DNA of 23,925 nucleotides from Elusimicrobiota bacterium (GTDB lineage: Bacteria; Elusimicrobiota; Elusimicrobia; UBA1565). The translations under genes were made by a program, and so were the position numbers. Under the pieces are notes generated by a model that was given only the letters and a program-made list of their open reading frames with translations, searched no databases and had not been told where the DNA came from. Below are positions 5,339-23,925 of the stretch, piece by piece (positions within the stretch are counted from its first letter, which is position 1; the number at the start of each line of letters is the position of its first letter). The stretch covers positions 1 to 23,925 of the forward strand of contig JBDRPD010000074.1 of the NCBI GenBank assembly GCA_043827405.1, given 5' to 3'.

Positions 5339-6233
5339 CGCTCCCCGGCTCGTCCTAACAATCACCCGCGCCTGCAACCTACGTTGCGGCTTCTGTCCCC
5401 TCGAAACAGGAAAGATGGATATGTCGTCCGAGGTCGCGGCGCGGGCGACAGCTCTTTATCGGGACCGATTCGCCGGCCGCCGGCAGCATGTGCGTTTTTT
5501 CGGCGGTGAGCCGTTGCTGCGCTTCGGCCTGCTGCGCGACATCGTGGCTTCGTTTCCCGAGGAGGTGCGCTTTTCCTTCCCCACCAACGGCACTTTGTTC
5601 GCTGCGGAGACCGCCGACTTTCTGCGGACGCATCCGCAGGTGGAAGCGGCGGTCAGCCGGGTGCGCGACGTCCGCTTGCTGGCCTCGCTCGACAACGTTT
5701 TGATCAGCGTCTGCGTACCGCCCCAGGGTGCCGCCGACCTGGCGCCCTATGTGGCGCGGCTGCTGAAGGCGGGGATCTCGCGGCTGAATTTTCTGCCGGC
5801 TTTTTATGTGCGCTGGAATGCGGGAGAGACCGCCGCTTTGCGGCGGTCGTTTGGCCTCACCGCCGGCCTGATTCGGGAGTGGAGGTCCCGCGGACATGCC
5901 GTGGAGGTCCGCAATGCCGCCGTCTTCAATCCCGTCCCGCTCTACAATCACGGCATGGTCGTGGATTACAACGGCGACATTTATTCGAGCAACGCCGCCC
6001 TGGGCGCCGGATTCAAGGACCTGCGCGGTGAGCTGCGCCTGGGCAGCGTGCTGAAGCCGAAGACGGTCGCCTGGGAGCGCGCCGATAGCATCGATTGGCC
6101 GGCCCTCTTCCGGGCGAGGCTCGACGACGATGTCTATCAGTCCACCCGGCGGATCAACGATTCGCTGACGGACTTCGTACGGGAACTAGGTGATCATAGG
6201 AGCAGAAATGCGCCGGCCGCCGTCTCTGTGTGA
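5325..6233 (+). CDS. Radical SAM protein without SPASM cysteines
   Basis: 302 aa. Motifs CNLRCGFC, FFGGEPLL and PTNGT. The C-terminal VDYNGDIYSSN resembles a SPASM/twitch hairpin but has no Cys. It overlaps the precursor 3' end by 14 nt. Confidence 0.85.
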   Translation: MEHGDAPRLVLTITRACNLRCGFCPLETGKMDMSSEVAARATALYRDRFAGRRQHVRFFGGEPLLRFGLLRDIVASFPEEVRFSFPTNGTLFAAETADFLRTHPQVEAAVSRVRDVRLLASLDNVLISVCVPPQGAADLAPYVARLLKAGISRLNFLPAFYVRWNAGETAALRRSFGLTAGLIREWRSRGHAVEVRNAAVFNPVPLYNHGMVVDYNGDIYSSNAALGAGFKDLRGELRLGSVLKPKTVAWERADSIDWPALFRARLDDDVYQSTRRINDSLTDFVRELGDHRSRNAPAAVSV

Positions 6234-8822: not shown

Positions 8823-10345
8823 TCGATTCGGAACGCCTCTTTCGCTGTATGTTCCATGGGCTGCTGGCCCGCAGCGACGACTATCCCCCTAAAGACGGCC
8901 TGTACCAGGACTATACCTACTTCAAGCCGGCGCCGCTGGATAAGATCCGCGACGCCTGGAAAAATACGGTCCGGCTGATCCGTGACGGCAAAGCGCCGGA
9001 GAATATCATCCTCTACATCCACTGGCCGTTTTGCCCCAGCCAGTGCACCTACTGCTTTTGCAGCATGACGGTGTCGCAAAACCGCCGGGAATGGGACAAC
9101 TATACCCGGTCGCTGATGCGGGAGATGGACGCCTTCCGCGATGTGTTTAAGGGCGTCGAGCTGCACTCGGTATATTTCGGCGGCGGGACGCCGACCTATA
9201 TCACGGAGAGCCAGCTCGATGCGCTGTTTAAGCATATTCGATCCTGCTTCAAGCTGCGCCGGGGAGCGGAAATCTACTTTGAAGCCTCGCCGGCGACGCT
9301 GACGGCCAAGAAGGTCGATCTTTTGCGGCGGCACGGAGTGAACCGCATAACGCTGGGCCTGCAGACGCGCGACGACGCCGTGCTGCGCGGGGTTAACCGC
9401 AAGGGGCAGAGCAAAGAGGCGGTCGAGCGCGCCTGGAAACTGCTGGCGGGATGCCGCGGCATTATCCGCGACGTCGATTTGATGGTCGGCTTGGAGGGGC
9501 AGACCCGTATGTCCTTTTTGCAGGACCTGATTTGGTCGATTCGCAAAGGCGCCGATATTATCCATATCCAATCCTTCGACCCGCGCGCCCAGACGTTGTT
9601 CTCACGCAAGCGCAAGCGTAAGGATGCCGATTACTGGCGGGTGATGGCGAAGACCGTCGAGATCGCCGAGGGCGTGCTCAAGACCGCCGGCTACGGCATG
9701 ACGCATTACGATTTGCAGCGAGGGGTCGGTACCAGCGAGGAGAAGATCCTGTCGGACGATCCGTTCGAGCTGTCGTCGGTGCTCGCGCTCGGCAAGCACG
9801 GCAAGGCGCATGCTTTCGGCAGCGCCTGGTACCAGCACCCGCCGGTCCGGGCCGGGGGCTTCCGTTCCGACCGCATCCCGCCGTTCCAGTATATCCCGGC
9901 CGATCTTGATGAGGAGATGCGCTGCTACGTCATCCGCAGCTTGTGTTTGCATGAACGCGTGAACCTGCCGGCGTTTCGCCGCCTCTTCGGCCGGGAGCTT
10001 AACGAAGATGTAGAGGTCTACCGGCCGCTGCTCGAGCTCGCCCAATGGGGCAAGGTGCGGCTGGGGACGTCCGAGATCCGCCTGGCGTCGCGCACTCCCC
10101 TGGAGCGGCTTATCTGGCTTAAGCATCTGTATCACGAGTCGGTGCTCAACGACGTGATCGCCAAGCACCGCGGCCGGTTTGCGGAATTTAAGCGCGCCTA
10201 TAAGCGCGATCCTGAAAACACGCTCCGGCAACTGCGTACCAAGGCCGAAGCGCGGACCTATCACCTGGTTTACTACCAAGGGTTTGGCGGCGGGCGGCGG
10301 CGTCTGCCGACGGAGAATGAGACCCGGCAGCTGGCGGCGCTGTGA
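8819..10345 (+). CDS. HemN-like radical SAM protein, paralogue 3
   Basis: 508 aa. Motifs LYIHWPFCPSQCTYCFC, YFGGGTPT, RITLGLQT and DLMVGLEGQT. Confidence 0.88.
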   Translation: MIDSERLFRCMFHGLLARSDDYPPKDGLYQDYTYFKPAPLDKIRDAWKNTVRLIRDGKAPENIILYIHWPFCPSQCTYCFCSMTVSQNRREWDNYTRSLMREMDAFRDVFKGVELHSVYFGGGTPTYITESQLDALFKHIRSCFKLRRGAEIYFEASPATLTAKKVDLLRRHGVNRITLGLQTRDDAVLRGVNRKGQSKEAVERAWKLLAGCRGIIRDVDLMVGLEGQTRMSFLQDLIWSIRKGADIIHIQSFDPRAQTLFSRKRKRKDADYWRVMAKTVEIAEGVLKTAGYGMTHYDLQRGVGTSEEKILSDDPFELSSVLALGKHGKAHAFGSAWYQHPPVRAGGFRSDRIPPFQYIPADLDEEMRCYVIRSLCLHERVNLPAFRRLFGRELNEDVEVYRPLLELAQWGKVRLGTSEIRLASRTPLERLIWLKHLYHESVLNDVIAKHRGRFAEFKRAYKRDPENTLRQLRTKAEARTYHLVYYQGFGGGRRRLPTENETRQLAAL

Positions 10346-11310
10346 TGGATATGAAGAAAGCACCGGCCATCGAGCGGCTCGAACTCCACGTCGTCTACCA
10401 GTGCGTCAACGACTGCGTGTTCTGCAGCGAGCGCGACCATATGCGCGAGTTCTCCGCGCATCCGGCGACCATGGCGGAGATCGAGGAGCTGCTCGAGCGC
10501 AAGCGCGGCGCGGGGTGCCGGCATGTGACGTTTACCGGCGGCGAGCCGACGCTGTTTCCGAAGATTTGGCGGGCGTTCGAGAAGGCCAAGGCGCTCGGCT
10601 ACCGGACCTTTCTGGTTACCAACGGCTCGGCGCTGGCGCTGGACGATTTCGCGGCGGCGGCGCTGCCGCACCTCGATGAGATATGCCTGTCGCTGCACGG
10701 TCCCGATGCCGCGGCGCATGAGGGATTAACGCGCAACCCCAAATCGTTCGCGCGGCTGGAGCGGGCGTTCGCTAATATTCAAAGCCATCCGGGGCCGCAC
10801 TTTCTCATGATCAACTGCGTCGTGAACCGGGAGAATGTGAATCAGCTCGCCGGCATCCTGCGCTTTGCGGCCGGCTGCGGCAAGCTGCGCCAGGCTCTAT
10901 TCTCCTATCCCGCCCCTCTCGGGGCCGCCCGGGAGCGCTACGCGGAGCTGGCGCCGCGGCTCGGCGAACTGAGCGCGCGGCTGCCCGAGCTTGTTCGAAT
11001 CGCCGCGGAGAAGGATGTCGTGCTCCGCATCGGCGGCGTGCCGGCCTGCGCGCTCGGCGAGCGCTGGGAGTGCTCAGACGATCTGTATTTCAGCCCCCGG
11101 CTCACCGTATCGCGAACCAAGACGGCGGACGGCGGCGTCGGCTGGTTTGAGGAGGAAGAGCGGCGCCCCGGGCGCGAGCGCTTCCATCCCGCCGGCTGCG
11201 GACCCTGCTCGCTGCGCGGGCGCTGCGGCGGCGTGTATAAGGCATACTGGGATAAGATCGAGCAGGTCGAGCTGAAGCCGTTCGCCGGCGAGGGTGCATG
11301 CCGCTCCTAG
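10342..11310 (+). CDS. HxsC-like radical SAM protein with a C-terminal Cys cluster
   Basis: Motifs CVNDCVFC, FTGGEPTL, TNG, SLHG...HEGLT, GVPAC and CGPCSLRGRCGGVYKAY. The start may be 10342, 10345 or 10351. Confidence 0.85.
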   Translation: MMDMKKAPAIERLELHVVYQCVNDCVFCSERDHMREFSAHPATMAEIEELLERKRGAGCRHVTFTGGEPTLFPKIWRAFEKAKALGYRTFLVTNGSALALDDFAAAALPHLDEICLSLHGPDAAAHEGLTRNPKSFARLERAFANIQSHPGPHFLMINCVVNRENVNQLAGILRFAAGCGKLRQALFSYPAPLGAARERYAELAPRLGELSARLPELVRIAAEKDVVLRIGGVPACALGERWECSDDLYFSPRLTVSRTKTADGGVGWFEEEERRPGRERFHPAGCGPCSLRGRCGGVYKAYWDKIEQVELKPFAGEGACRS

Positions 11311-13697
11311 AGGACGATCTCACGTATTTTGAGAACGCGGCGGACCGTTTCGGCGATCCTGAATATGATCTGTTGGAAATGTACTTTCGCATCTCCCGGG
11401 CCGGCGACCGCGAGCGCTGGGATGCTCTCGAGGTGCGCAAGTTCTGGAGCCGCTGGTCCCGCGCGGCCCAAGACGGCAGCGGACCTGAGCTGCTGAACCT
11501 CTACGTGCATGTCCCGTTCTGCAAGCGCAAGTGCGCCTACTGCCATCATTATTCACGTGAGAGCTACGTTGCCGCGGACGTGGCGGGCTACCTGACAGCC
11601 CTGCGCAGCCAGATCCAATACTTTTCCGCCCCGCTGCGCGGACGGACCGTGCGCAACCTCAGCATCGGCGGCGGTACGCCCAGCGTTCTGAGCGCGCCGC
11701 AGCTGACGGCTCTGCTGGCGGACCTCAACCGAGAGTTCGCGTTCCATCCCGACGGCGAGCGCGTCTGCGAGCTTAATCCGGCGAGCGTGTCGGCCGCCAA
11801 GCTTGATGCCCTGGAGCGGGGCGGCATCAACCGCATCAGTCTCGGCGTGCAGTCGCTCGATGCGGGCGTGCTCCGCGCGTCGCGGCGGGAGGCGGCGGCC
11901 GAGAAACGGGTGCTGCGCGCGATTGAAGACTGCGCGCGGCGCGGCTTTACCCGCGGGGTTCATGTCGACCTTCTTATGGGTCTCGACGGGGACACCCCGG
12001 AGACCTTTCGCCGGACCTTTAAGCGTCTTCTGGGTGCCCAGCCGGACGGGATATTCGTTAACTCGCTGCGTCCGACCAGTGCGTATCTTAAAAGCCGCTT
12101 CGGCGGGAACCTGCAGGCGTTCGCGCGGCATTTCGCGCCGTTTGCCGCGGTCGCGGCGGCGCTGGGCAAGGCCGCCGGCAAGGCGGGTTACGACGCCGTG
12201 CACGGCGCCGCCGACCGGGAGCTGATTTTCGTCCGGCGGGGATGCGGTCAGGACTGGAGCGACGAGCTCAATGTCTACTACGAGCATTCGGCGGAGCCGT
12301 TTTCCGTGCTGGGTCTGGGCGCCAGCGCGCAGTCGCATGTCTATGGAAGCTGCCATTATATGCAGGACGCGCCGGAGGCGGGGAGGTTCGAGCCCGCGGC
12401 CCAGGCTTACCATGGGCTGCGCTTCACCATCCGCGATGAGATGCTCAAACATGTCTTTACCAAGCTGCGGCAGAGGGCCGGGATCAGCGCCAAGGAGTTC
12501 GCGGCCAAGTTCGGGCGGCCGTTTGCCGAGGAGTTTCGCGAGGCGATCGCCAACGGCAAGGCACGGGGCCTGCTGCAGGCGCGCGGCGGCGTCTATCGCC
12601 TGCGGGAAGTGCCGGCGCGCGAGGAGTTCATCTGCGGCTTATACTTCGCCGGCCGCGGGGCGGTGGCACGCGCTCTGGGCGAGGACGGCGAACGCGCGGC
12701 GGTCGCCAGAGAGGTGAAGAATCTCGAGCTGAATCTCGGCATGGCCTGCAATAACCGCTGTCTGTTCTGCATGAGCGGACAGGTCAAGCCGGATATGCGC
12801 CTGTGGATGCCGCTGGAGCGGGCGCAGCGCGAGCTGCTGCACTTCTACAACGCCGGCTGCCGTTCGGTGGGCTTTCTGGGCGGCGAGCCGAGCGCCTATC
12901 CGCAGATTATCGAGTGCGTGCGCTATGCGAAGTCGCTCGGCTACCGGCGCATCGCCCTGTGCTCCAACGGTACCAAGTTTTCCGATCACCGGTTTACCGA
13001 CGCCCTGGTCGCCGCCGGCATGACGCGGGTGACGGTTTCGATCCACAGCCACCGGCCCGCGGTCGAGGACAAGCTGACCGAGCTTCCGGGAAATTTCGCG
13101 CGCAAGCTTAAGGGCTTGCGCCACCTGCGGGTGCTGCGCGAGCAGGGCCGGCTGCCGGACAACGTCTCGCTCAACCCGGTCCTCAACGCCCGCACCGTGC
13201 CGCATATGCGGGAATATATCGAGTTTTTCCGCCGGGAAGGCTTCGACGATATACGTTTTAACTACATTTGGCCGCAGGCGCGGGTGGAAAATGACCGCAG
13301 CATCGTCCCCCGCTTCCGGAACGCGATGCCGATGATTCTGCGCGTCCTGCTGCTTAACGAAGCCCAGTGGAAGATGCATATAACGTTCGGCGGCTTGCCG
13401 CCCTGCATGCTGCGCTGGGGCGGAAAGGATTTGTCTCCGGAGATGACGGACTATCTCGCCGTGCGCTACCTGCTTGAACTGGACGACCCTCCGACGCAGA
13501 CCAGCCTGCAGGGCCGCGAGCGCTTCGCCTGGAACACCCGCAAAGGACGCAAGCGCAATATGCTCAAGACCCATGCGCCGGGCTGCGAGCGCTGCCCGTA
13601 CTTCGCCGCCTGCGAGGGCGTGTGGAAAACCTATGCGGCGATGTACGGGCTCACGGAGATCGTGCCGCCGCGGCGGAAAGCGGGAGCGGCCGTATGA
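11298..13697 (+). CDS. Two-domain radical SAM fusion: N-terminal HemN-like plus C-terminal HxsC-like
   Basis: 799 aa. Domain 1 has LYVHVPFCKRKCAYC (Cys motif at 11520-11543), GGGTPS and RISLGVQS. Domain 2 has CNNRCLFC (12747-12770), LGGEPS, SNG, SIHS, GLPPC and CERCPYFAACEGVWKTY. Confidence 0.88.
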   Translation: MPLLEDDLTYFENAADRFGDPEYDLLEMYFRISRAGDRERWDALEVRKFWSRWSRAAQDGSGPELLNLYVHVPFCKRKCAYCHHYSRESYVAADVAGYLTALRSQIQYFSAPLRGRTVRNLSIGGGTPSVLSAPQLTALLADLNREFAFHPDGERVCELNPASVSAAKLDALERGGINRISLGVQSLDAGVLRASRREAAAEKRVLRAIEDCARRGFTRGVHVDLLMGLDGDTPETFRRTFKRLLGAQPDGIFVNSLRPTSAYLKSRFGGNLQAFARHFAPFAAVAAALGKAAGKAGYDAVHGAADRELIFVRRGCGQDWSDELNVYYEHSAEPFSVLGLGASAQSHVYGSCHYMQDAPEAGRFEPAAQAYHGLRFTIRDEMLKHVFTKLRQRAGISAKEFAAKFGRPFAEEFREAIANGKARGLLQARGGVYRLREVPAREEFICGLYFAGRGAVARALGEDGERAAVAREVKNLELNLGMACNNRCLFCMSGQVKPDMRLWMPLERAQRELLHFYNAGCRSVGFLGGEPSAYPQIIECVRYAKSLGYRRIALCSNGTKFSDHRFTDALVAAGMTRVTVSIHSHRPAVEDKLTELPGNFARKLKGLRHLRVLREQGRLPDNVSLNPVLNARTVPHMREYIEFFRREGFDDIRFNYIWPQARVENDRSIVPRFRNAMPMILRVLLLNEAQWKMHITFGGLPPCMLRWGGKDLSPEMTDYLAVRYLLELDDPPTQTSLQGRERFAWNTRKGRKRNMLKTHAPGCERCPYFAACEGVWKTYAAMYGLTEIVPPRRKAGAAV

Positions 13698-15736
13698 GCG
13701 CGCCGGCCAAGGTCTCCAAGCGCGGGGTTGAGCTCTACAATGCGGGACGCTATGCCGAAGCGATCATTTGTTTTGAAAAGGAAGTGAAGGCGGGCCGCGA
13801 CGACGCCGTGACGCGGCGCTTCCTCGCGCACGCCTACGCGTCTGTGGGGCGGACCGGCGACGCGGTGCGCCAGCTGCGGGCGGCGTTTCGCCGGGGCTCG
13901 GACCCCTCGGCGGTGTTCGATGCGCTGCGCATGATCATGGGTAAGGCCTCGCGTTTCGGCGAGACCGAGGAGAACCTGATGTGCGCGCTGGAAAAGGCGC
14001 CAAGCTCCGCCGGGATGCGCCTCGCGCTTGGCGGGCTTCATCTCGAGCAGGGTCGTCTGCGGCAGGCGGAAGTGAACCTGCGCGCGGCGCTGCGGCATGA
14101 TCCCCGATCCGAGCAGGCGCTGTTGATGCTTGGGCGCCTGCTGGAGGCGCGGGGCATGGATAAGGAGGCGGAAAAGATTTACCGGAAAGTGGATTCGGCC
14201 GAAGCGCGGCTGAAGCTGGGCGAGCTCTATCTGCGCCGCGGCCGTCTGGAGGAGGCCGAAAGGACGCTGCGGCAGGGCGCCCAGTCAACGACCGCGCTGC
14301 TGCTTTTGGGACGGGTTTTGGAAGCCCGCGGCGACGGCCGCGCCGCTGAGAAGCGCTACCGGAAGGCGCTCGAACTGGCTCCCGATTTGCCTGAGCCGAG
14401 GCAGCGTCTGGGCGAGCTCTATCTGCACCAGGGAAAGCATGAGCGGGCGGAAGAACTGCTGCGCCAAACCGCGGGCGCGCAAGCGGCTCTGCTGCTGGCG
14501 GAGATGCAGATCGGACAGGGAAAGCCGGCGGCAGCGGAGAAGACTTTGCTGGCGGATCTGCGCCGGCGCCCGAACGACCCGCGGCTCCTGTCCAAGCTCG
14601 GCTGGCTGTATCATCAAATGGAGCGGCCGGCCGATTTTCGCGCGGTCTTTAAGCGCTTTCTCGCCGCCGCTGACCAGGGGCATCCGCACCGGTTTCTGGC
14701 CCGAGTGGCCATCGAGGACTACAAGGGAGCGCTGCGCGAGGCGGAGCAGGCGCTGGCGGTCCGCAAGGCCGCGGTGGATGACCGTCTATTCCATCCCTGG
14801 GCGGATGATTGGTTCCCGCCGCGGAAGCCGGCGTTCTACGAAGGACAGCTGGAGAAGGTCGCGGCGCTGCCCGTTCCCTGGCGGCGGTTCTTCCGCGGGC
14901 TGCTGCTCGGGTATTTGGAGCGCTATCGCGAGAGCCTGTCCGAGTTCGACGGGATTTCCGCGCGTGGCGCTAAGCGCTGGGGCTGGATGCGCTACGCGCC
15001 GGGCCTGCAGCGGCTGCAGCTGCGCGACTACCCCGCCGCGGTTGAGGACCTGCGCGCGGCGCTCGCCAGCCGTCCGGATATGTGGATGGCGCGCTGCCAT
15101 CTGGCGGAAGCTTATCTATGCCTCGGCGAACCGGCCCAGGCTTTCCGCGAGTTCGCCGCGGCGGAGAAGCGCGGCGACGATGTCGCCGCGGCCAATGTGC
15201 GCGTATGGCGGGGCGAAGCGCTGCTGTGGCTCGGCCGCTGCGATGAGGCGCTGCGCGAGCTGGACCGGGAGAACCGGGACGTCTCGGCTTTCGCCTTCGC
15301 CTGGAGCGGCGCCGCGCGCATGCTGCTGGGCGATCCGGAGCGGGCGCTCGCCGATCTCAATCGGGCGGCCGCCGGCGGGGCGCATGATGCCGAAGTCTAC
15401 CTGTGGCGCGGCGAGCTGCACCGCCGCCAAGGACGCCATGCCGAAGCGCTCGTCGATTTAGACCGCTCGCTGGAGCTCGGGGGCTTGGCCTGGGCGCGGG
15501 TCAACCGGGCCTTGACCTGCGCCGCCCTGGGGCGGGACGCCGAGATGTGGCGCGACTTCGAGGCCATCCCGCACGAGGTGCTCGCGCTGGGGGCGGAGGA
15601 GCTGCCCCGCGGTCTGGACAAGCGCGGGATCGTCCGTCTGCTGGAAGCCGCCCTCGCGGCGGCCGGCGGCGTGCGCCGGCCGGAGCCGTATACGCTGGAC
15701 GCGCTCAAAGCGAAGCCCCGCCGGGGGCGCGGCTGA
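13694..15736 (+). CDS. Tetratricopeptide repeat protein (~680 aa)
   Basis: Many TPR-like units (e.g. ALLMLGRLLEARG..EAEKIYRK; RLGELYLHQGKHERAEELLR; YLWRGELHRRQGRHAEALVDLDRSLEL). I moved the start to ATG 13694 (ATGA overlap, GGGAG upstream). Confidence 0.85.
   Translation: MSAPAKVSKRGVELYNAGRYAEAIICFEKEVKAGRDDAVTRRFLAHAYASVGRTGDAVRQLRAAFRRGSDPSAVFDALRMIMGKASRFGETEENLMCALEKAPSSAGMRLALGGLHLEQGRLRQAEVNLRAALRHDPRSEQALLMLGRLLEARGMDKEAEKIYRKVDSAEARLKLGELYLRRGRLEEAERTLRQGAQSTTALLLLGRVLEARGDGRAAEKRYRKALELAPDLPEPRQRLGELYLHQGKHERAEELLRQTAGAQAALLLAEMQIGQGKPAAAEKTLLADLRRRPNDPRLLSKLGWLYHQMERPADFRAVFKRFLAAADQGHPHRFLARVAIEDYKGALREAEQALAVRKAAVDDRLFHPWADDWFPPRKPAFYEGQLEKVAALPVPWRRFFRGLLLGYLERYRESLSEFDGISARGAKRWGWMRYAPGLQRLQLRDYPAAVEDLRAALASRPDMWMARCHLAEAYLCLGEPAQAFREFAAAEKRGDDVAAANVRVWRGEALLWLGRCDEALRELDRENRDVSAFAFAWSGAARMLLGDPERALADLNRAAAGGAHDAEVYLWRGELHRRQGRHAEALVDLDRSLELGGLAWARVNRALTCAALGRDAEMWRDFEAIPHEVLALGAEELPRGLDKRGIVRLLEAALAAAGGVRRPEPYTLDALKAKPRRGRG
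14216..14426 (+). repeat. Exact 19-bp direct repeat within the TPR array
   Basis: ctgggcgagctctatctgc at 14216-14234 and 14408-14426, encoding LGELYL in both copies. Confidence 0.8.
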
Positions 15737-16875
15737 TGGAATATCAAGCGCGGCATTGGGTGCGGCTTACCGCGGCCTGCAACAATAACTGCGTGTTCTG
15801 CCTGGATGCCGCCGCCCGCATGGGCGAGATGCTTCCGTTCGCGGATATCATGGAAGAGCTGCGGCGCGGACGCGAACTCGGAATTACGCGGGTCGTCCTC
15901 AGCGGTGGCGAGCCGACCATCCATCCCCGCTTTCTCGATATCGTCGCCCAAGCGCGCGAACTCGGCTACACGCATATTCAAGCGATCTCCAACGGCCGGC
16001 GCTTCGCCGAGCCCGGGTTTATCGAACGCTGCGTTCAGTCCGGGCTGCGGGAGACGACGATATCGATGCATGGCCATACGCCGGAGCTGCATGACGGGCT
16101 GGTGCGGGTTCCGGGAGCTTTTAAGCAGAGCCTGGCGGGACTTGGAGGGGCGCTCAAGCGTTCGGAGCTCATCGTCAGCGTGGATATCGTCCTCAATAAG
16201 CAGAACATGGAGGTTATCGATGACGTGCTGTGGTTTTTCCTGCGTCTCGGCGTGCGCGAGTTTGATCTCCTGCATGTGGTTCCTTTCGCCAGCGCCTGGG
16301 ACAACTGGGAAATGCTCCGCTACGATCCCGCGGCGGTCCGCGAGCGCTTTCAGCGCGCCTTGAAGCTGGCCCGCAATATGGGCGCGGTGCTGTGGACCAA
16401 CCGTCTGCCGGCTAAATTCCTGGAGGGCTTCGAGGATTTGATCCAGGATCCGCGCAAGATCCAGGATGAGGTGCGGGGTCGCGCCGCGATGTTTCACGAG
16501 TTTCTGGCCGGCGGCAAGCTTATGGGCTGCCGCGACGAACGCTGCGGCTTTTGCTTCCTGGAAGGCTGGTGCGAGGACCTGATCCGGCTGCGGGATCGGG
16601 GACGGCTGGCGGGGCGTCCGCTGCCCAAATGCCTAAGCGCGGGCGGCGGGAAGGCCAAGCCGCCCGTGTTTCGCTGGGCCGGCGCGGCGACCGACCTCAA
16701 CGAGTGGACCCGCTTTTATATCGAGAACCGCTACCATATCAAGGGGAGCGCCTGCGGAGAGTGCGCGCATGAGCGGACTTGCGCCGGCGCGCAGATCGAC
16801 TTCATTCGCGCCCAGGGTTTTAAGGCGCTCAAGCCCGGCAAGAAAAAGAAGAGGAAAAAGACGTGTCGGAATTAG
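15736..16875 (+). CDS. HxsC-like radical SAM protein with an extra Cys-rich segment (~379 aa)
   Basis: I moved the start to ATG 15736 (TGATG overlap; MEYQARHWVRLTAACNNNCVFC). Motifs SGGEPTIHP, SNGRRF and SMHG..PELHDGL. The C-terminus has CRDERCGFCFLEGWC, PLPKC and CGECAHERTCAG. Confidence 0.85.
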   Translation: MEYQARHWVRLTAACNNNCVFCLDAAARMGEMLPFADIMEELRRGRELGITRVVLSGGEPTIHPRFLDIVAQARELGYTHIQAISNGRRFAEPGFIERCVQSGLRETTISMHGHTPELHDGLVRVPGAFKQSLAGLGGALKRSELIVSVDIVLNKQNMEVIDDVLWFFLRLGVREFDLLHVVPFASAWDNWEMLRYDPAAVRERFQRALKLARNMGAVLWTNRLPAKFLEGFEDLIQDPRKIQDEVRGRAAMFHEFLAGGKLMGCRDERCGFCFLEGWCEDLIRLRDRGRLAGRPLPKCLSAGGGKAKPPVFRWAGAATDLNEWTRFYIENRYHIKGSACGECAHERTCAGAQIDFIRAQGFKALKPGKKKKRKKTCRN

Positions 16876-17816
16876 CTTACCTTCAGATCACGCGGCGCTG
16901 CGACCAAAGCTGCCGCTTCTGCTCGAATCCATCCAACGGCCGCATGATCCCGCTGCGGCGCGCCAAGAAGTGGATCGACCGCTTCGTCAAGGAAGGCTAC
17001 GCCGGCCTGATCCTGACCGGGGGCGAGCCGACTTTGCACCCGGAGCTCGACAAGATTATTCGCTATACGGTCGACAAGAAGAAGGTCGCGGCGCGCGTCA
17101 TCACCAACGGTCAGAAGATCAGCGACTTCGCCTACCTCGAGCGCCTGCGCGACGCCGGCCTCCGGCATCTGCATGTTTCCGTTTACTCGCACCAGACCGG
17201 GATTATGGCGCAGCTGACGCGCCGGCCCAACTCGCTGCCGAATATTATCCAGGCCCTGGACAACGCGGCCGAGCTGGGGATGCACGTCGACGTCAATACG
17301 GTCATCAACCGCTACAACGCCGATCACCTGAGCCGGATCGTGGAGTGGATCTGCGGCCGCTGGCCCGCGGTGCGGCATTTCGTGTGGAACAATATGGATC
17401 CGACCATGAACCGGGCCAGCGACAACCCCGACACCGTGCCCCGGCTGAAGGACTTCGAGCTCGAGCTCTACCGCGCGATGAGCTTCCTTGAGTCGACGGG
17501 CCGCACCTTCCGCTGCGAGCGCGTGCCGCTGTGCTTCATGACGGATTTCGCCCACTGTTCAACCGAGACCCGCAAGCTGGTCAAGAGCGAGGGGCGCGCC
17601 ATCTACTTTCTCGATGAGAAGGGGATCAAGTTCCAGAACACCAAGGGCTTCTGGAATTACAGCAAGGCGCCCAAGTGCGCGCATTGTCCGCTGAACTCCA
17701 TCTGCGCCGGCCTCTATGAGATGGACACCTACTACAGCTCGGACGAGCTGTGCCCCGTTTTTGTGTCCAAGGAAGCGATCGTCGACCGGGTCCTGCGTTC
17801 TGGGGAGCAGGCGTGA
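16863..17816 (+). CDS. HxsC-like radical SAM protein
   Basis: 317 aa, GTG start after GAGG. Motifs CDQSCRFC, TGGEPTLHP, ITNG, RVPLC and CAHCPLNSICAG. Confidence 0.87.
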   Translation: MSELAYLQITRRCDQSCRFCSNPSNGRMIPLRRAKKWIDRFVKEGYAGLILTGGEPTLHPELDKIIRYTVDKKKVAARVITNGQKISDFAYLERLRDAGLRHLHVSVYSHQTGIMAQLTRRPNSLPNIIQALDNAAELGMHVDVNTVINRYNADHLSRIVEWICGRWPAVRHFVWNNMDPTMNRASDNPDTVPRLKDFELELYRAMSFLESTGRTFRCERVPLCFMTDFAHCSTETRKLVKSEGRAIYFLDEKGIKFQNTKGFWNYSKAPKCAHCPLNSICAGLYEMDTYYSSDELCPVFVSKEAIVDRVLRSGEQA

Positions 17817-19045
17817 CGCTGAGCTTGTTTTTCTACGATGCCCTGCTGCTTATGGGGCTTGTCATCTCCTACGAGGACTGGCGCGAGCGCAAGATCCGCA
17901 ACCGCTGGATCGTCGCCGGGCTGCTGCTGTGCGCCGGGGGCTACCTCTACCTGCTCGCCAACAGCGTGCTGGGGTATTCGAAGCTGCGCTGGATGGGGCT
18001 CGGCGAGTACTATCTGCCGTGGAACTTCTACCTCCTCGTGGCGGGACATGTGCTGCTGGTGATCATGACCGGCATCGTGAGCTGGTGGATGGGGCTGTGG
18101 CCGGCGGGCGACGCGAAGCTCTACATCGTCTTCGGCATCCTGATCGTGCTCATCGACCAGAATGTCCGGGGCTTCCCGTATATCGTTTTTCTCAAGCTGC
18201 TCATCAATATCTTCGTGCCGGCCGGTTTATGGATTCTGGCGACGGTTTTGCTGGGAGCGGTTAAGTCGCTGCCGAAAGTCGATTTTTCCAACCCGCGGCG
18301 CCGGGTGGAGGGGCTGCTGGACCGGGCCTGGAAGCGGGGGCGCGATATCTGGCCCTATCGCTACGGCTTTACGGTCTATCTGCTCAACATCTTCCTGCTG
18401 TTCTTCGCGCTCGATCTCCTGGAAGGACGATTCGCGGAATTGTCCTTTCTTAAGAACGCCTGGGGCAAGATCGTCGTGCTGCTGCTGATGTACGTGCTGT
18501 GGACGCCCGTCAGCCGGCTGCTGAAGGGAAAGCGCTTCTGGCGGACCTGGCTGCTCATCGCGGCCTGGTGGGTGTTCGATCCCGTGCTGCGGCAAACCAA
18601 TATGGCGGCGGCGGTAGCGGATACCATGGAGACCGTGATTATGTTCGGGGTCATCCTGACCTTTCTGCGCTCGGCGGTTACCCTCTTTCTGCGCTGGGAG
18701 AGTACGGAGAATATCGACGCCAAGGACCTGCGGCCCGGCATGATCCTGTCCGAGAAGGCTTGGGAGACCATGCAGGAATTCGGCCGCGAGCGCCGGGAAA
18801 ATTTCCCGCGCCGCTACGCCGACGGCCTGTTCCCGGAGGATGTGGAGCGGCTGCAGGAGTGGAAGATCCCGGATGCGGTGGTGACCGTCTACCGCGCCAC
18901 GCCATTCGCTTTCTGGGTGTTCTATGGGACCTTGATCACCCTGGTGCTGCCGAAAAACGCCGTCTACTGGCTGTTCCGGATCTTGTACGATCCGTCGGGG
19001 GCGGTCTATTCCTTCCTGCGGCTGTGGGGAATAGGGAGCGGCTGA
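17813..19045 (+). CDS. A24-family (prepilin/preflagellin peptidase-like) polytopic aspartic peptidase (~410 aa)
   Basis: I moved the start to GTG 17813 (GTGA overlap, GGGGAG RBS). The first Asp motif is SYEDWRERKIRN (Asp at 17876) and the second is WPAGDAKL (Asp at 18110). It has many hydrophobic segments, and the C-terminal DLRPGMILS...GL..EDVERL...ATPFAFWVFYG resembles FlaK-type peptidase C-termini. Confidence 0.75.
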   Translation: MTLSLFFYDALLLMGLVISYEDWRERKIRNRWIVAGLLLCAGGYLYLLANSVLGYSKLRWMGLGEYYLPWNFYLLVAGHVLLVIMTGIVSWWMGLWPAGDAKLYIVFGILIVLIDQNVRGFPYIVFLKLLINIFVPAGLWILATVLLGAVKSLPKVDFSNPRRRVEGLLDRAWKRGRDIWPYRYGFTVYLLNIFLLFFALDLLEGRFAELSFLKNAWGKIVVLLLMYVLWTPVSRLLKGKRFWRTWLLIAAWWVFDPVLRQTNMAAAVADTMETVIMFGVILTFLRSAVTLFLRWESTENIDAKDLRPGMILSEKAWETMQEFGRERRENFPRRYADGLFPEDVERLQEWKIPDAVVTVYRATPFAFWVFYGTLITLVLPKNAVYWLFRILYDPSGAVYSFLRLWGIGSG

Positions 19046-19049: not shown

Positions 19050-20042
19050 ATGCAACGGTTCGCGGATCTCAAGACCGGCTATGACTGCAACAACAACTGC
19101 GTGTTCTGCGTGCAGGGCGAAAAACGGAAGCAGCACGCGCCGTTGGCCTGCGCCGAGATCGAGCGCAAGCTCAAAGAGGGGCGCGGCCGGGGCGCCGAGC
19201 GCCTGCTCATCGCCGGCGGCGAGCCGTCGATCCGCGAGGACTTTCTGCCGACGGTGCGCGCGGCCCGCGGCCTCGGCTATTCCGAGGTTCACGTGCAGAC
19301 CAACGGCCGCCGCTTCTGCTATCCCGACTTTTGCCGGCGGACGATCGACGCGGGTGTGACCCACTATCATGCCGCGCTCCAGGGCTCCGGCGCGCCGCTG
19401 CATGACTATCTGACCGGTGCCGCGGGGAGCTTCCTGCAGACCGCGGCCGGCATCCGCGGCCTGCGGCGGCTCGGCCAGCGGGTGCTGACCGATACCGTTA
19501 TTACCAAAGCGAACTACCGCGACCTGCCCGACCTCGCGCGACTGCTGGTGCGGCTCGATGTGAACCAGGCGCAGCTGAGCTTTATTCACGCCGCGGGCTC
19601 CGCCGCCGCGGCCAAGGCCTGGCTGGTCCCGCGCTATGCGATGATCGAGCCTTGGGTCAAGGCCGCGGTCGACGTCTGCTCGCGCTCGGGAAAGACGGTT
19701 ACGACCGAGGGTATCCCGTACTGCTGCCTGCGCGGCTATGAGAGCTATGCGGCGGAGCTGATCATGCCCGAAATCGTGGTGTTCGACGCCGCCGGGACGA
19801 TTGAAGACTTGGCGCGGCACCGCGCCGAGAACGCCCGGGTCCTCGACGAGCGCTGCCGCGACTGCGCCTATGCCGGGGCCTGTGCCGGGCCGTGGCGGGA
19901 GTATCCGGAGCTGTTCGGCTGGAGCGAGTTCGCCGCGGTCCGGCGAGGGTGGCCGGCCGCGCCGGCGGACCAGCAGGCGGCCTTTGTCTGCGGCAAGAAC
20001 GGCCATATGCTCGAGCCCAAGCGGAGTGTCTGCCATGGCTGA
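19050..20042 (+). CDS. HxsC-like radical SAM protein
   Basis: 330 aa. Motifs DLKTGYDCNNNCVFC, AGGEPSIR, QTNGRRF, LHDYLT, EGIPYC and CRDCAYAGACAGPWREYPELFG. Confidence 0.88.
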   Translation: MQRFADLKTGYDCNNNCVFCVQGEKRKQHAPLACAEIERKLKEGRGRGAERLLIAGGEPSIREDFLPTVRAARGLGYSEVHVQTNGRRFCYPDFCRRTIDAGVTHYHAALQGSGAPLHDYLTGAAGSFLQTAAGIRGLRRLGQRVLTDTVITKANYRDLPDLARLLVRLDVNQAQLSFIHAAGSAAAAKAWLVPRYAMIEPWVKAAVDVCSRSGKTVTTEGIPYCCLRGYESYAAELIMPEIVVFDAAGTIEDLARHRAENARVLDERCRDCAYAGACAGPWREYPELFGWSEFAAVRRGWPAAPADQQAAFVCGKNGHMLEPKRSVCHG

Positions 20043-21360
20043 CAACGGGTACCGCAGCTACGAGAATCCGAACTGCCTGCCGCCGGACGTCCCCGGCTGG
20101 CGCAGCTTCCTCAAGCGCGACCGGTTTGCCCGCCACAAGTACCACTCGCTTATGCCCGCGCATCCCTGCGTCGACATCATGCACGGAGATCTGGAGTGCC
20201 GCTACACCCATCCGACCGGGGACGGCCGTACCGTCTCCTTTCTCAACTTCCCTTGGCTGCGGCCCAATCGCGAGTCGACGCCGGCGCCGTACCGGGTTCT
20301 GACCACGGATATGCGGGAATCCGACGTGGTCGCCGGCGCGTTGGGCAAGGCCCGGCGGCAGCTCCGGCTGGCGGTCGAGGAGATGCCGAAAGGCGCCTTC
20401 GTGCTGCTGAATTCCGCCTGCGTGCCGGACGTGACCGGCGAGGATCTGGAGACGGTCGCCCGCCCCTGGCGGGACAAGGCGCCGGTCTTCTACGAAAAAT
20501 CCGACGGCAAGGATAAGGCGCCGCCGCTGGTTTCCAAGATGATCGCGCTGGCCGGCCGGCCCGCCGCGGGCAGGCGAAAGAAAGGAGTCGTCAACCTCAT
20601 GGGCTGTCCTCCGGGCCGCGTGGAGAACGAATTGCGGGAGCTGCTGGCGGCGGCGGGGCTGCGCGTCGCCGCCTCTCTGGTACCGCTCCTGTCGCCCGCG
20701 CGGATACGCGCCGCCAGCTCCGCCTCGCTCAATATCCTGATGCCCAACCGGCTCTACGACGCGCTGTTTTATGAGTTGCTGCGGGCGGTTCGGCTGCCGA
20801 TCGTCCGGCCCCCGCCGCCCTACGGCCTGGACGGCACGACGCGCTGGCTGGCGGCGACGGGCGGCAAAGCCGCGGCAGTCAGGTCGCGCCGCCGCTGGGA
20901 AGGCGATTGGGGCCGGCTGCGCCGGGAGGCGGCCCGGCACCGGCTCGGCTTCATCGTCGATCCCGGCGAGCTCGCCGTGCTCTCCGATCCGGCCCTGAAC
21001 GCCGGCTGTCCGCTGCTCCCCATGAGCAAAGAGATGGGCTTTGGCGTCGATCTTCTGGTTTACGATCCGGCGGGGAAGACGGCGGGCGGGAAGGGACGGC
21101 ACCGGGCGCATTCTTTCGGCACGCCGGATGAGCTCGCGGCGCTGATCAGCGGACTTTCCTGCGGCGCCTTCTATTCGGACTGCTTCTTTGATGCCCGCCT
21201 GTCCCGGCGCGGGAAGGGGCAGTTCTCCCTGAATTTCTTCGAGGCCGGCTTTGCGGGAGGCGTGCGCACCCTGGAGCGCCTGCTGGACGTCTGCCGCCTG
21301 CCGTTTTACCGCCGCTACGGCCGTTACCTGGGACCTCATTATGAAAAGCAAGCCGGCTAA
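20035..21360 (+). CDS. Nitrogenase component 1-type oxidoreductase-like protein A (~441 aa)
   Basis: I moved the start to ATG 20035 (GGAG RBS at 20023-20026). IMHGDLEC, TTDMRESDVVAGA, LNSACVPDVTGEDLETVA, VNLMG, ELRELLAAAGL, PPYGLDGTTRWL and AGFAGGVRTLERL follow the NifD/K/E/N-BchN/B-CfbD motif order. Confidence 0.7.
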   Translation: MADNGYRSYENPNCLPPDVPGWRSFLKRDRFARHKYHSLMPAHPCVDIMHGDLECRYTHPTGDGRTVSFLNFPWLRPNRESTPAPYRVLTTDMRESDVVAGALGKARRQLRLAVEEMPKGAFVLLNSACVPDVTGEDLETVARPWRDKAPVFYEKSDGKDKAPPLVSKMIALAGRPAAGRRKKGVVNLMGCPPGRVENELRELLAAAGLRVAASLVPLLSPARIRAASSASLNILMPNRLYDALFYELLRAVRLPIVRPPPPYGLDGTTRWLAATGGKAAAVRSRRRWEGDWGRLRREAARHRLGFIVDPGELAVLSDPALNAGCPLLPMSKEMGFGVDLLVYDPAGKTAGGKGRHRAHSFGTPDELAALISGLSCGAFYSDCFFDARLSRRGKGQFSLNFFEAGFAGGVRTLERLLDVCRLPFYRRYGRYLGPHYEKQAG

Positions 21361-22645
21361 AAAGAAAATAAAGATCGGCCGCGACCTGAAGAAGTTCGGC
21401 CAGCCGCTGGATTATCCGTACCTGCTGGGCGTCTATATGGCGGTCAATGCCGTGCCCGGAACGGCGATCCTCATCGACGGGCCGGACTGCGCGGTCGGCA
21501 AAGCGGAGCATCTCTTCGGCAAGCATGACGGGCGCTCCACGCTTCTCGATTGCTCCGGGCTTAACCGCGTGGAATGTACCTTCACCGACGCCCGTAATAC
21601 CGCGCATTCGCGCGAAGCGGCGGTGCGCAAAGGCCTGCTGGCTTTGGCCGCGCGCGACGATGTACGGGCGGTGCTGCTGTCGTCTCTGCCGATGACCTTC
21701 GTTACCGGAACCGACTACCGGCGCATTCTGCGGGGAGCGGTGGAGCGGACGTCCAAGCCGCTGTATTTTGTTTCGCCGCGTTCGCTGCAGGGCGGCTACC
21801 TCGACGGCTTCGCCGCCGCCCAACAGAGCCTGGCCGAAGGAATCTCCCGGCCCCGCCGGCGCCCGGCCCGGGATAAAGCGGCGCTCGTCGGCTACCTTAT
21901 GGATCGCGGCGAGGAGGATCATCGCGCCAATCTGCAGGAGCTGCGGCGCCTGCTCGGCGCGCTGGGCGTCGATGTCGTTTCCGCGTGGTTTGACGGCTCG
22001 CCGTATGCGGAATTGGACGCCATCGGCCGGGCCGGTACGATCATCTCGCTGCCGTACGGCCGCCGGGCCGCGCGCGCCGCCGCCAAGCGGACCGGGGCGG
22101 AAGTGCTGGAGCTCGGCCTGCCGGTCGGGATCGACGGGACGCGCCGCTGGCTGGAGAAGGCCGGGGCTTTCTTCGGCGGCGCAAAGAAAGCGCGGCGCTT
22201 TATCGAATCCGAGCTGCGTGCCGTTGTGCCGCGGCTGGAATGGGTTGTGCCGCATTCGTTTTTGCATAAGCGGTTCTGGATTTCGGCCGACCCTCATATG
22301 CTTGCCGCGCTGACCGCTTTGGTCGAGGAATTCGGCGGACGCGTCGTCGGCGGCGCCGTCGTGGGAAGCGGCGTGCCTTCGGCGAAGCTGCTCGTTCGTC
22401 CAACCTCCGGGGCGCTCGCGGAAAGTCTGGGCCGGGCCTGCGCCGCGGGCGTCGACCTGGTGATCGGCGGCAGCGACGTCATAAAGCATGTGCCGCGCGG
22501 CGTGCCGGCGATCGAGCTGGGCTTTCCCTCATACTTCACGCATGCCCTGCATGCCAGCCCGACCATGGGTTTCGCGGGGAGCCTCGCGCTCATGGACCGC
22601 ATGGCGAATGCGATGAGCGCGGCGGCGTCGCCCCGGGGGGAGTGA
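21341..22645 (+). CDS. Nitrogenase component 1-type oxidoreductase-like protein B (~434 aa)
   Basis: I moved the start to ATG 21341. Motifs LIDGPDC, VTGTDY, ELRRLLGALGVDV, LPVGIDGTRRWL, DLVIGGS and IELGFPSY...PTMGFAGSLALMDRMANAM. Confidence 0.75.
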   Translation: MKSKPAKKKIKIGRDLKKFGQPLDYPYLLGVYMAVNAVPGTAILIDGPDCAVGKAEHLFGKHDGRSTLLDCSGLNRVECTFTDARNTAHSREAAVRKGLLALAARDDVRAVLLSSLPMTFVTGTDYRRILRGAVERTSKPLYFVSPRSLQGGYLDGFAAAQQSLAEGISRPRRRPARDKAALVGYLMDRGEEDHRANLQELRRLLGALGVDVVSAWFDGSPYAELDAIGRAGTIISLPYGRRAARAAAKRTGAEVLELGLPVGIDGTRRWLEKAGAFFGGAKKARRFIESELRAVVPRLEWVVPHSFLHKRFWISADPHMLAALTALVEEFGGRVVGGAVVGSGVPSAKLLVRPTSGALAESLGRACAAGVDLVIGGSDVIKHVPRGVPAIELGFPSYFTHALHASPTMGFAGSLALMDRMANAMSAAASPRGE

Positions 22646-23925
22646 TGGGAGACGCCAGCGCGATCCGGCGGCTGTTCGGGGCCGCCGCGCGCAGCCCCAT
22701 GTGGACGCGGGAGGGCGTCTTCCTGTATCCTCCGAAATCACTGTGGTCGCCGCTGCGCCCCGCGCAGGCGGCCGCCGACTGGCGCCAGCTCAAGCATGCG
22801 GATAATGATCCGGTCGGGCTGTATGTCCATCTGCCGGCCGAGACGGAGTCGATCGCGGAATTCTTCGCGCCGCGCCGGACGCATCCGTATATCGAGTGCC
22901 TGCAGAAGGAGGCGGATATCCTGCGCTTGCCCGCCGACCTGCCGCTGCGCACGCTGTATATCGGCTCGGGCGGCGCCGGCGTGCTCGGGAGCTTTTCGGC
23001 CGCGGACATCCGGACCTTGCTGAGCTGGCTGCGCCGCCGCTTCCGGCTGTCGTCTTTGCAGCAGGCGGCGGTCGAGGTCGATGCCGCCGAGCTGACGCGC
23101 GAGAAGGTGCGCGAGCTCAAGCGCGCGGACGTCGACCGCGTGACCGCCTTTTGCCCCGCGGCGGACGGCCCCGAGGTTTTTCTGCGCCGCCGCCGCTTCG
23201 CCGCCGGCCTGCGGCTGTGCCGCCGCGAAGGTATTCGCTATATCTCGATTGATCTGGCGGCCGGCCGGCCCGGAAAAACAGCCGGCGCCTCCTGTCTCGA
23301 CGCCGAGTTCGCTCTGTCGCTTAAGCCCGACGCGGTGCATCTCCATGACCAGAGCATGCCGGCCGCCGGGCGGACCATGCCGCTCGGCCGCCTGCAGCGG
23401 CTGGTGGCGGCGGCGCAGAAGGAGCGCGGTCCGGAGGGCGAGCCGAGCTCCGCGGCTAATAATCTCCAGCTGTCGCACGTATCCGCCCGCAGCGCCTCCA
23501 TCCTGGGTCTGGGCTGGAATGCCGTCTCCCATATCCGCGGGCGGCGGGTTTACGGGCATGCCGAGCCCTGCTTTAAATACGCCGCAGCCTTGCTTAATGG
23601 CCGCGCCCCGCGCTATACGGGGCATGCGCTGGATGAAGAGATGGAGATGCGTTCCTTCATCGTGCGCGCGCTCGAGGACACCGGGCGTTTGGACTGCGTA
23701 ACGTTTCGCGATACCTTCGGCCGCGAGCCGGAAGCGGCGTTCCCGCGGCTGTTCGGTCCGCTGCTGCGGGAAAAGCGGCTTTCCCGCCGAGCCGGGCAGC
23801 TGATAGTCGCCGCCAAGAGAGAGGAGGCGCGCTATCTGTGTTCGGTGCGGTTCTACGGGCGCGAGCTTCTGCGCCGGCTCGCGGCGGCGCCCGCGCAGCG
23901 GGCTCCGGATCCGGCGCACCGTACG
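22645..23925 (+). CDS. HemN-like radical SAM-fold protein lacking CxxxCxxC (3'-truncated by the window; absent from the ORF track)
   Basis: Translated by hand: ATG 22645 (TGATG overlap, GGGGGAG RBS), then 427 codons with no stop. MGDASAIRRLF...GLYVHLPAETESIAEFF...TLYIGSGG...EVDAAELTREKVRELKRADVDRV...SIDLAAGRPG...SILGLGWNAVSHI...EMRSFIVRAL...FRDTFGRE. Confidence 0.8.
   Translation, partial: MGDASAIRRLFGAAARSPMWTREGVFLYPPKSLWSPLRPAQAAADWRQLKHADNDPVGLYVHLPAETESIAEFFAPRRTHPYIECLQKEADILRLPADLPLRTLYIGSGGAGVLGSFSAADIRTLLSWLRRRFRLSSLQQAAVEVDAAELTREKVRELKRADVDRVTAFCPAADGPEVFLRRRRFAAGLRLCRREGIRYISIDLAAGRPGKTAGASCLDAEFALSLKPDAVHLHDQSMPAAGRTMPLGRLQRLVAAAQKERGPEGEPSSAANNLQLSHVSARSASILGLGWNAVSHIRGRRVYGHAEPCFKYAAALLNGRAPRYTGHALDEEMEMRSFIVRALEDTGRLDCVTFRDTFGREPEAAFPRLFGPLLREKRLSRRAGQLIVAAKREEARYLCSVRFYGRELLRRLAAAPAQRAPDPAHRT

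Follow-up and report, generated by a model that had tools for sequence, protein, structure and literature searches.

The subject of this report is a 23,925-base stretch of Elusimicrobiota DNA with a G+C content of 65% (hereafter, the window), which corresponds to the entire contig C74 of a 4.33 Mb genome (G000; 108 contigs, 98% complete). Two adjacent genes of the window encode nitrogenase-like proteins, designated A (441 aa, 20035..21360) and B (434 aa, 21341..22645). Judging by their phylogenetic placement, A and B are almost certainly the NflD and NflK proteins of Group VI of the nitrogenase-like (NFL) proteins, a group that was originally defined on NifH phylogeny, whereas the tree built here is one of D and K proteins. 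The pair is encoded within an enlarged His-Xaa-Ser (Hxs) system, and the explanation favored here, to which we assign a probability of roughly 0.5, is that A and B form an ATP-driven Group VI reductase participating in the maturation of a His-Xaa-Ser peptide.

Both genes start with ATG and are located on the forward strand, which carries all of the credible genes of the window in tight packing. The two genes overlap by 20 nt, the start codon of gene A overlaps the stop codon of the upstream radical S-adenosylmethionine (SAM) gene (ATGGCTGA), and the GTG start codon of the next gene, at 22642, overlaps the stop codon of gene B. A Pfam search placed both proteins above the cut-off of PF00148 (28.6 bits): A scored 70.2 bits (E-value, 2.1e-19; residues 45–277), and B scored 143 bits (E-value, 1.5e-41; residues 29–425). 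This is in agreement with a preliminary description of this DNA, which had recognized two adjacent, overlapping nitrogenase-component-1-like genes and had inferred that their products make up a heterodimer. In the AlphaFold2 model of A (pLDDT 81, pTM 0.82), the entire protein could be aligned with chains of MarD, NifD, and NifE (Foldseek E-values, 1e-15 to 1e-13), the best match being MarD (9d9u_A; E-value, 1e-15; TM scores, 0.61/0.69). The model of B (pLDDT 92.4) matched NifK, NifN, VnfK, and BchB chains (E-values, 4e-22 to 3e-19), and best of all NifK (4wes_B; E-value, 3.9e-22; TM score, 0.79). At the sequence level, the nearest solved chains were MarD (E-value, 2.8e-5) and NifE (E-value, 2.5e-4) for A, and NifN (E-value, 1.5e-8) and NifK for B, all of these being weak matches with E-values of mostly 1e-5 to 1e-8. 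Based on the structure and sequence matches to solved chains, A is of the alpha type and B is of the beta type. The Pfam match of A covers residues 45–277 only, and the possibility that A is a fragment was ruled out by its complete alpha-type fold and by the existence of 455 full-length relatives: a profile built from 13 A-type proteins retrieved 455 cluster representatives at an E-value ≤ 1e-30, most of them spanning profile positions 4–426.

Among 8,000 candidates scored, 137 homologues of B were found at an E-value ≤ 1e-3. Those that are named are hypothetical or "nitrogenase component 1" proteins from metagenome-assembled genomes of Elusimicrobia and Myxococcota, including a protein with 40% identity from Elusimicrobia bacterium GWA2_69_24, an organism that is named in the Group VI section of Meheust et al. 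2020 (bioRxiv 10.1101/765248). A phylogenetic tree (quick search, LG+G4) was built for 74 PF00148 proteins, 9 of which are from the source genome and 57 from related loci, together with NifD, NifE, NifK, NifN, BchN, BchB, BchY, and BchZ references from two annotated plasmids; it excludes three rows with internal stops, contains no CfbD or Mar sequence, and its long Bch branches are unreliable. Two clades, each with a support of 99, were recovered in this tree: one of the D type, which has 34 rows and includes A, and one of the K type, which has 31 rows and includes B. All of the Nif and Bch references lie outside both clades. Three lineages recur in the two clades, namely, the A/B type, an N-terminally extended type found beside a free NifH, and a type in which the D protein is fused to NifH. 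The A/B-type lineage is composed of proteins from the window, L015, L016, and L017–L019, with L031 and L032 represented on the D side only. A itself is a short D-type form, which has neither the N-terminal extension nor the NifH fusion that most members of the family carry.

Group VI was described in 2020 as a set of nitrogenase paralogues located beside up to 13 radical SAM genes (bioRxiv 10.1101/765248, main text). In passages of a 2026 article in Chemical Reviews, the group is listed under "unknown cofactor synthesis", and is said to have no FeMo-cofactor ligands, no NifB, and no more than four of the six P-cluster Cys positions filled (PMC13474568). Hence A and B do not constitute a new family, and belong to the already described Group VI NFL of groundwater Elusimicrobia. 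The preliminary description had called the pair uncharacterized, which is still correct according to the same review. It had also regarded two outcomes as fatal to its proposal, a missing fold match and a position within a characterized clade that has no recurring link to hxs genes; instead, the fold was recognized, the clade is an uncharacterized one, and a close link to hxs was found in 13 of 22 genomes, as detailed below.

Assignment to the characterized branches of the superfamily was considered and rejected. A true nitrogenase NifDK can be discarded because the full set of six P-cluster Cys is lacking, no FeMo-cofactor ligands are present, no NifB was found, and the NifD and NifK models score 27–36 bits against cut-offs of 427–513. 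The BchN/BchB proteins of dark-operative protochlorophyllide oxidoreductase (DPOR) differ from the pair in that the upstream Cys region is deleted and a Cys replaces the Asp of BchB; the respective models score 32–36 bits against cut-offs of 324–509. CfbD is discarded based on the score of TIGR03282 (19.2 bits; cut-off, 268.4) and on the presence of a K-type partner, since CfbD is a homomeric D protein without K. Taken over all Nif, Bch, and Cfb equivalog models, the scores range from 19 to 36 bits, and the cut-offs range from 268 to 513.

Sequence alignments revealed a small set of conserved cysteines. A-C55 is part of the motif HGDLEC (20182..20199) and corresponds in the NifD and NifE references to the Cys of HGPVGC; it is invariant in 13 out of 13 A-type proteins, and a Cys is found at this position in 12 of the 13 Group VI D-type rows. 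A-C129 (20419..20421), within NSAC, occupies the third cluster-ligand position of NifD, NifE, and BchN, is a Cys in all 13 D-type rows, and is aligned with Cys residues of the NifD, NifE, BchN, and BchY references. In B, the motif DGPDC (21476..21490) contributes C50, which aligns with the Cys of HGSQGC in NifK and NifN, is located where BchB has an Asp, and was found to be a Cys in each of the 11 K-type rows of Group VI and nearly invariant in 36 homologues. The position of the third Cys of NifK, NifN, and BchB is taken in B by L116-P117-M118 (21686..21694, in LSSLPM), with P117 being nearly invariant in the same 36 homologues. A fourth conserved residue, A-C420 (21292..21294), lies in the C-terminal CRLPFY motif, is a Cys in 11 of the 13 D-type rows, and is not among the residues named in the predicted A/B interface. 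The remaining Cys residues of A and B are not conserved. With the exception of c13 (a D-type gene, C101:18452-19885), the Group VI D-type rows have a deletion of the upstream Cys region, the Cys of which presumably serves as a ligand in NifE and BchN, and no equivalents of the NifD FeMo-cofactor ligands Cys275 and His442 were found in A, the alignment showing other residues at those positions. All five motifs quoted in the preliminary description (HGxxxC, SAC, DGPDC, YPYLLG, and LSSLPM) were recovered by direct reading where it had placed them. Of the two sites at which B was said to have lost a ligand, LSSLPM proved to be one, while YPYLLG (B residues 25–30) did not: it aligns with the upstream Cys motif, which we take to be a ligand position in the alpha-type proteins NifE and BchN and not in beta-type proteins.

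Prediction of a complex of A and B with a [4Fe-4S] cluster yielded an ipSAE of 0.85, compared to 0.00 for the best control; the mark attained by A/B is reached by 116 of 157 solved complexes and by 2 of 215 mismatched pairs. Between prediction runs, at least 67% of the contacts were common, and the partner pLDDT was at least 88. The predicted interface involves residues 52–60 and 129–130 of A and residues 48, 50, and 116–118 of B, with B-C50 contacting residue 54 of A, so that A-C55, A-C129, and B-C50 are all found at the interface. This arrangement of two conserved Cys from A and one from B is consistent with the asymmetric ligation anticipated by the preliminary description. As NifDK-type complexes have already been solved, the prediction demonstrates likeness and not binding, and the pairing score may reflect memory of such complexes. 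As far as can be judged from the aligned residues, the data fit a simple cluster held by three Cys, with a fourth ligand that is either not Cys or absent.

Pfam and profile searches detected no NifH in the window, as had been noted before, but NifH is not missing from the genome. Contig C101 (31.4 kb) contains three NifH domains, one free-standing and two fused N-terminally to D-type proteins (790 and 793 aa), and the Walker A motif and both cluster Cys are kept in all three. The same contig has seven PF00148 genes, four of the D type and three of the K type (the nitrogenase-like cluster occupies L013:8236-19885 and L014:2987-4333), along with genes for HemN-like, B12-type, and other radical SAM proteins, a tetratricopeptide repeat (TPR) protein, and a Crp regulator. 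No match to NifB was obtained in the 98%-complete genome. The NifH-NflD fusions are not mentioned in the main-text passages of bioRxiv 10.1101/765248 and PMC13474568, although Figures S5/S6 could show them. In relatives, genes corresponding to those of the window and of C101 are interleaved within single loci (L021–L025), and in L023 and L025, a NifH-D fusion and its K partner occupy the exact place of A/B. The A/B-type pair of L017–L019 is followed by NifH, and NifH adjoins the B-like gene in five out of five further genomes tested. In the source genome, no end overlap of at least 15 nt that would join C74 to C101 or to any other contig was found. Between the B-like gene and NifH of L017–L019, there is a small open reading frame (ORF) (L017:11318-11674, L018:11333-11701, and L019:11402-11686), which resembles only the C-terminal part of NflK (25–30% identity to residues 340–480 of the C101 K-type protein encoded at 12855–14447).

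The head of the window operon encodes three components of the Hxs system at scores above the model cut-offs, which bears out the earlier placement of the pair within a peptide-modification operon. These are HxsD (2611..3372; TIGR03976, 62.7 bits, cut-off 50), the radical SAM/SPASM maturase HxsB (3572..5026; TIGR03978, 512 bits, cut-off 370), and an HxsA4-like precursor (5030..5338; NF038313, 59.5 bits, cut-off 55) with eight His-Xaa-Ser repeats in its translation. The precursor is a 102-aa HGS-repeat peptide with the C-terminal end ...SHYSHSSHGSHGSHGSHGSHGSHGAW (final letters HGSHGAW); it is the single match in the whole genome, and no peptidoglycan-binding domain was found in it by Pfam. At the other end of the operon, an HxsC4-like radical SAM gene (19050..20042; NF038332, 126.8 bits, below the cut-off of 500; motif CNNNCVFC) is translationally coupled to A and is syntenic in L015 and L016.

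In order to follow this association, 301 genomes of the phylum, the source genome included, were surveyed for HxsB (model cut-off) and for B-like genes (E-value ≤ 1e-20). HxsB scored above the cut-off in 48 genomes, and a B-like gene was present in 22. Twenty of these 22 genomes have HxsB above the cut-off; in G176 it is split in two, and G150 has none, its A/B-type contig terminating within the series of HemN-like genes upstream. HxsB and a B-like gene were found on one contig within 25 kb, at distances of 2–18 kb, in 13 of the 22 genomes, which come from three families (G000, G176, G188, G264, G266, G295, G054, G084, G112, G154, G178, G212, and G218). In L034 and L035, HxsD-HxsB-HxsA and NifH-NflD-NflK are co-directional neighbors. 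HxS-repeat ORFs were detected in five of the seven close-spaced loci fetched, which do not represent a random sample since they were fetched because of the close hxs/B-like spacing, and also in L046. The most complete arrangement is that of G188 (L045/L046), where about 32 kb on a single strand of a 779-kb contig join an A/B-type pair and NifH with HxsD, HxsB, an HxsA with 16 repeats, HemN-like, HxsC-like, and further radical SAM genes, and a homologue of the membrane protein encoded at 17750..19045 of the window; the only B-like match of this genome is that of its A/B-type pair. As G188 and G150 share the gene order of L017–L019, they were not counted as independent of these loci.

The words "Hxs", "His-Xaa-Ser", and "peptide" do not occur in the main text of bioRxiv 10.1101/765248, the Figures S5/S6 of which could show Hxs genes, and neither "Hxs" nor "RiPP" (a peptide made by ribosomes and modified post-translationally) occurs in the review PMC13474568. 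No nitrogenase paper was among the matches listed for the His-Xaa-Ser/Hxs literature, and "nitrogenase-like" was absent among the matches listed for the RiPP, radical SAM, and precursor-peptide literature. The NFL–hxs context is recurring and unpublished, and it names a candidate substrate: as A/B-type pairs are located inside operons for HxS-repeat peptides, the peptide can be tested as such.

According to the explanation favored here, A and B would most likely make up an alpha/beta unit with a simple iron-sulfur cluster located between the two subunits. A-C55, A-C129, and B-C50 would be ligands of this cluster, the fourth ligand being a residue other than Cys or absent; the pair would have no site of the FeMo-cofactor type. 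Electrons would be supplied in trans by the NifH-type ATPases (NflH) of contig C101. The pair would act within an enlarged His-Xaa-Ser system made up of HxsD, HxsB, a single peptide with HxS repeats, and some ten radical SAM enzymes, where it would most likely reduce an intermediate of the radical-SAM-modified peptide at low potential and at the expense of ATP. Gene context among related genomes makes it quite probable that A and B work in the Hxs pathway; that they reduce the peptide itself is a tentative proposal, which the same context puts slightly below even odds. More tentatively still, Group VI, with A and B included, might be the first case of nitrogenase-superfamily enzymes that have a ribosomal peptide as their substrate. 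In that case, HemN-like and HxsC-like radical SAM enzymes would build a heterocyclic or unsaturated structure from the His-Gly-Ser repeats of HxsA, Group VI would reduce it with ATP-driven low-potential electrons, and the several D/K lineages of one genome would take successive intermediates.

Several observations weigh against this explanation. We know of no nitrogenase-like enzyme that acts on a peptide, the contig that encodes A and B carries no NifH, and the pair offers only three conserved Cys as cluster ligands. Nine of the 22 genomes have no contig that carries both HxsB and a B-like gene, and one of these nine is G214, which is assembled in only about 30 contigs. As many as 28 of the 48 HxsB-positive genomes are without a B-like match, and in family f5, HxsB is present in 22 of 22 genomes, with NflK in only 8 of them. 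Since HxsB often occurs without NFL, Hxs maturation does not need NFL, and since HxsB is universal in f5, co-occurrence at the level of genomes is uninformative. Moreover, the related genomes of the survey are not independent of each other.

The genes surrounding A and B may also be read in terms of tetrapyrrole chemistry, in which NflH and NflDK would produce a new cofactor by reducing a tetrapyrrole at a C=C bond, as DPOR, chlorophyllide oxidoreductase (COR), and CfbCD do, and tailoring of the macrocycle would fall to the HemN-like and B12 radical SAM enzymes. We consider this unlikely, in spite of a number of points in its favor, some of which add to the case against a peptide substrate: four HemN-like radical SAM domains and a HemN-like protein without the radical SAM motif are encoded in the window, HemN-like and B12 radical SAM neighbors also fit a tetrapyrrole, the source genome has HemB, HemC, and HemD, and HemC is found in all 27 genomes of family f3. 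HemN-family enzymes, however, also take substrates other than tetrapyrroles. The hem genes of the source genome are located on contigs other than C74, A and B score far under the BchN, BchB, and CfbD cut-offs, and the NFL genes are found inside Hxs operons that encode a candidate substrate of their own. Furthermore, 7 of the 22 genomes with B-like genes, all from family f5 and 92–100% complete, have no match to HemC. The tetrapyrrole proposal was put forward by Meheust et al. 2020 on the basis of the NifH placement beside groups IV/V and of HemN_C and B12 domains in neighboring genes, and the main text of that work reports the same HemC gap, for which scavenging was invoked (bioRxiv 10.1101/765248); the proposal is repeated in passages of the 2026 review (PMC13474568).

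It is improbable that A and B serve as a scaffold or maturase resembling NifEN, assembling or holding a metal cluster for the radical SAM enzymes or for the His-rich peptide. B has NifN chains as its nearest solved sequences and NifE chains are among those of A, three conserved Cys are present instead of four, and a His/Ser repeat peptide would be a plausible metal binder; yet neither NifB nor another cluster-building partner was found in the genome, the NifH partners keep intact ATPase and cluster motifs, as in reductases, and the Group VI D-type proteins have lost the region of the upstream Cys that NifE presumably uses. A dedicated electron supply, in which NflH and NflDK would spend ATP on reducing the radical SAM enzymes at their [4Fe-4S] clusters and leave the peptide untouched, would suit clusters with ten to thirteen radical SAM domains and a window in which the Pfam scan found no ferredoxin or flavodoxin gene. 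This appears quite improbable, given that many Hxs clusters equally rich in radical SAM genes are without any NFL, and that several paralogous D/K lineages in one genome fit different substrates better than one housekeeping role. Finally, the absence of NifH from C74 and the lack of the usual N-terminal extension or NifH fusion in A would be expected if A/B were a paralogue of the NifH-linked C101 pairs that is decaying or without catalytic function. We regard this as very unlikely: the orthologous A/B pairs share 38–66% identity with invariant motifs and intact frames, and in G188, NifH adjoins the A/B-type pair that includes the only B-like match.

Tetrapyrrole reduction, the sole proposal made for Group VI NFL since the group was described in 2020, rests on weak context. 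The location of NFL genes in operons that also code for a repeat peptide and for the maturases of this peptide offers a concrete and cheap test of the substrate. Should the peptide prove to be the substrate, ATP-coupled reduction of the nitrogenase type would become part of the chemistry of ribosomal-peptide modification, and the His-Xaa-Ser system, so far known only as a four-gene phage defense, would have a far more elaborate relative. If it is not, the published tetrapyrrole reading would gain strength.

The remaining genes of the window were annotated by Pfam, NCBIfam, and, for radical SAM genes, by motif scan. The region 5325..17816 harbors nine CxxxCxxC motifs over eight radical SAM genes, and a TPR gene besides. 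It begins with a radical SAM gene (5325..6233), followed by three HemN-like radical SAM genes (6190..7383, 7380..8822, and 8819..10345), an HxsC-like radical SAM gene (10342..11310), a HemN+HxsC-like fusion (11298..13697), the TPR protein gene (13622..15736), and two more HxsC-like radical SAM genes (15730..16875 and 16863..17816). The fusion protein is 799 aa long and has one CxxxCxxC per domain, at residues 75 and 484. The window as a whole encodes eleven such motifs in ten proteins. Between this region and the HxsC4-like gene lies a gene for a multi-pass membrane protein of 431 aa (17750..19045) that has no match in Pfam or NCBIfam. Its homologues hold the same position in many related loci, where they are found between HxsC-like genes and share 25–44% identity, and the protein could serve to export the peptide or to cleave it as a protease. 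The gene that follows B (22642..23925) is truncated by the contig end and codes for a HemN-like protein with weak NCBIfam matches to HemZ and HemN. The CxxxCxxC motif is missing from this protein and from its orthologues (L015:4297-5571 and L016:11345-12568), and it may be a non-catalytic binding partner that is conserved with the closest A/B pairs.

TIGR03976 spans only residues 9–97 of the 253-aa HxsD protein, the remainder being a low-complexity tail rich in Lys, Asp, and Gly. Upstream of hxsD, the head of the window contains three ORFs of no known family according to Pfam and NCBIfam. The first of these, which is open at its 5' end (2–763), overlaps the ORF at 201–1343 in a different frame, and a copy of it with 93% identity is found where contig C106 ends (G000:C106:1-447). 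That copy is its only other match, with no relatives found among 40 genomes of the same order, and the ORF is probably a repeat that broke the assembly. An ORF at the end of C101, which was considered as the missing half of this first ORF, turned out to be a radical SAM paralogue instead. At its start, C101 has three tandem paralogous radical SAM genes (L013:3-3496, minus strand), homologues of which are located beside HxsB in relatives; in G306, which comes from the same family, one contig (C16) has at least a dozen matches to these genes in tandem.

Compared with known systems, the pair is closest to Group VI NFL (bioRxiv 10.1101/765248; PMC13474568), to which it is joined by the tree and by direct homologues. 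It shares with this group the lack of FeMo-cofactor ligands and NifB, the filling of no more than four of six P-cluster Cys positions, the many radical SAM neighbors, and the several copies per genome; it differs in that its contig carries no NifH and encodes a HemN-like partner without the radical SAM motif. With DPOR (BchN/BchB and BchL), the pair has in common the fold, one cluster site between the subunits with asymmetric ligation, and a donor of the NifH type that depends on ATP, and the model of B matches BchB (3aer_D) with an E-value of 2.8e-19. The DPOR cluster is bound by three Cys of BchN and one Asp of BchB, whereas A provides two Cys and B one, the upstream Cys region being deleted; the BchN and BchB scores given above and the position of the references outside the Group VI clades set the two apart as well.

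NifEN, which provides some of the nearest solved sequences (NifN for B and NifE for A), has a simple [4Fe-4S] cluster in the place of the P-cluster. It is a NifB-dependent cofactor scaffold, whereas the source genome is without a NifB match, and the NifE and NifN models score 29–36 bits against cut-offs of 327–505. MarDK (PDB 9d9u and 9fmg) includes the best sequence and structure match of A, MarD, at 19% identity. In passages of the 2026 review, the methylthio-alkane reductase (MAR) is reported to carry cofactors of the P-cluster and L-cluster types (PMC13474568), the ligands for which are lacking in A/B.

The canonical HXS is a four-gene antiphage system arranged as HxsD-HxsB-HxsC-HxsA (Li et al., Nat Commun 2026, PMC13128918), and, according to the survey published in the same article, 99.7% of HXS systems are found in Pseudomonadota. 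PADLOC (2023) assigned no defense family to A, B, or their neighbors, giving generic viperin-like radical SAM matches only. No bona fide HxsC was detected in the window, the best HxsC score being 96 bits (cut-off, 267.9) and the best HxsC4 score being 131 bits (cut-off, 500). As in the canonical system, HxsD, HxsB, and an HxS-repeat protein are encoded at scores above the cut-offs, here at the head of the operon; in the window, however, the order is D-B-A, and it is followed by about ten more radical SAM genes and the NFL pair.

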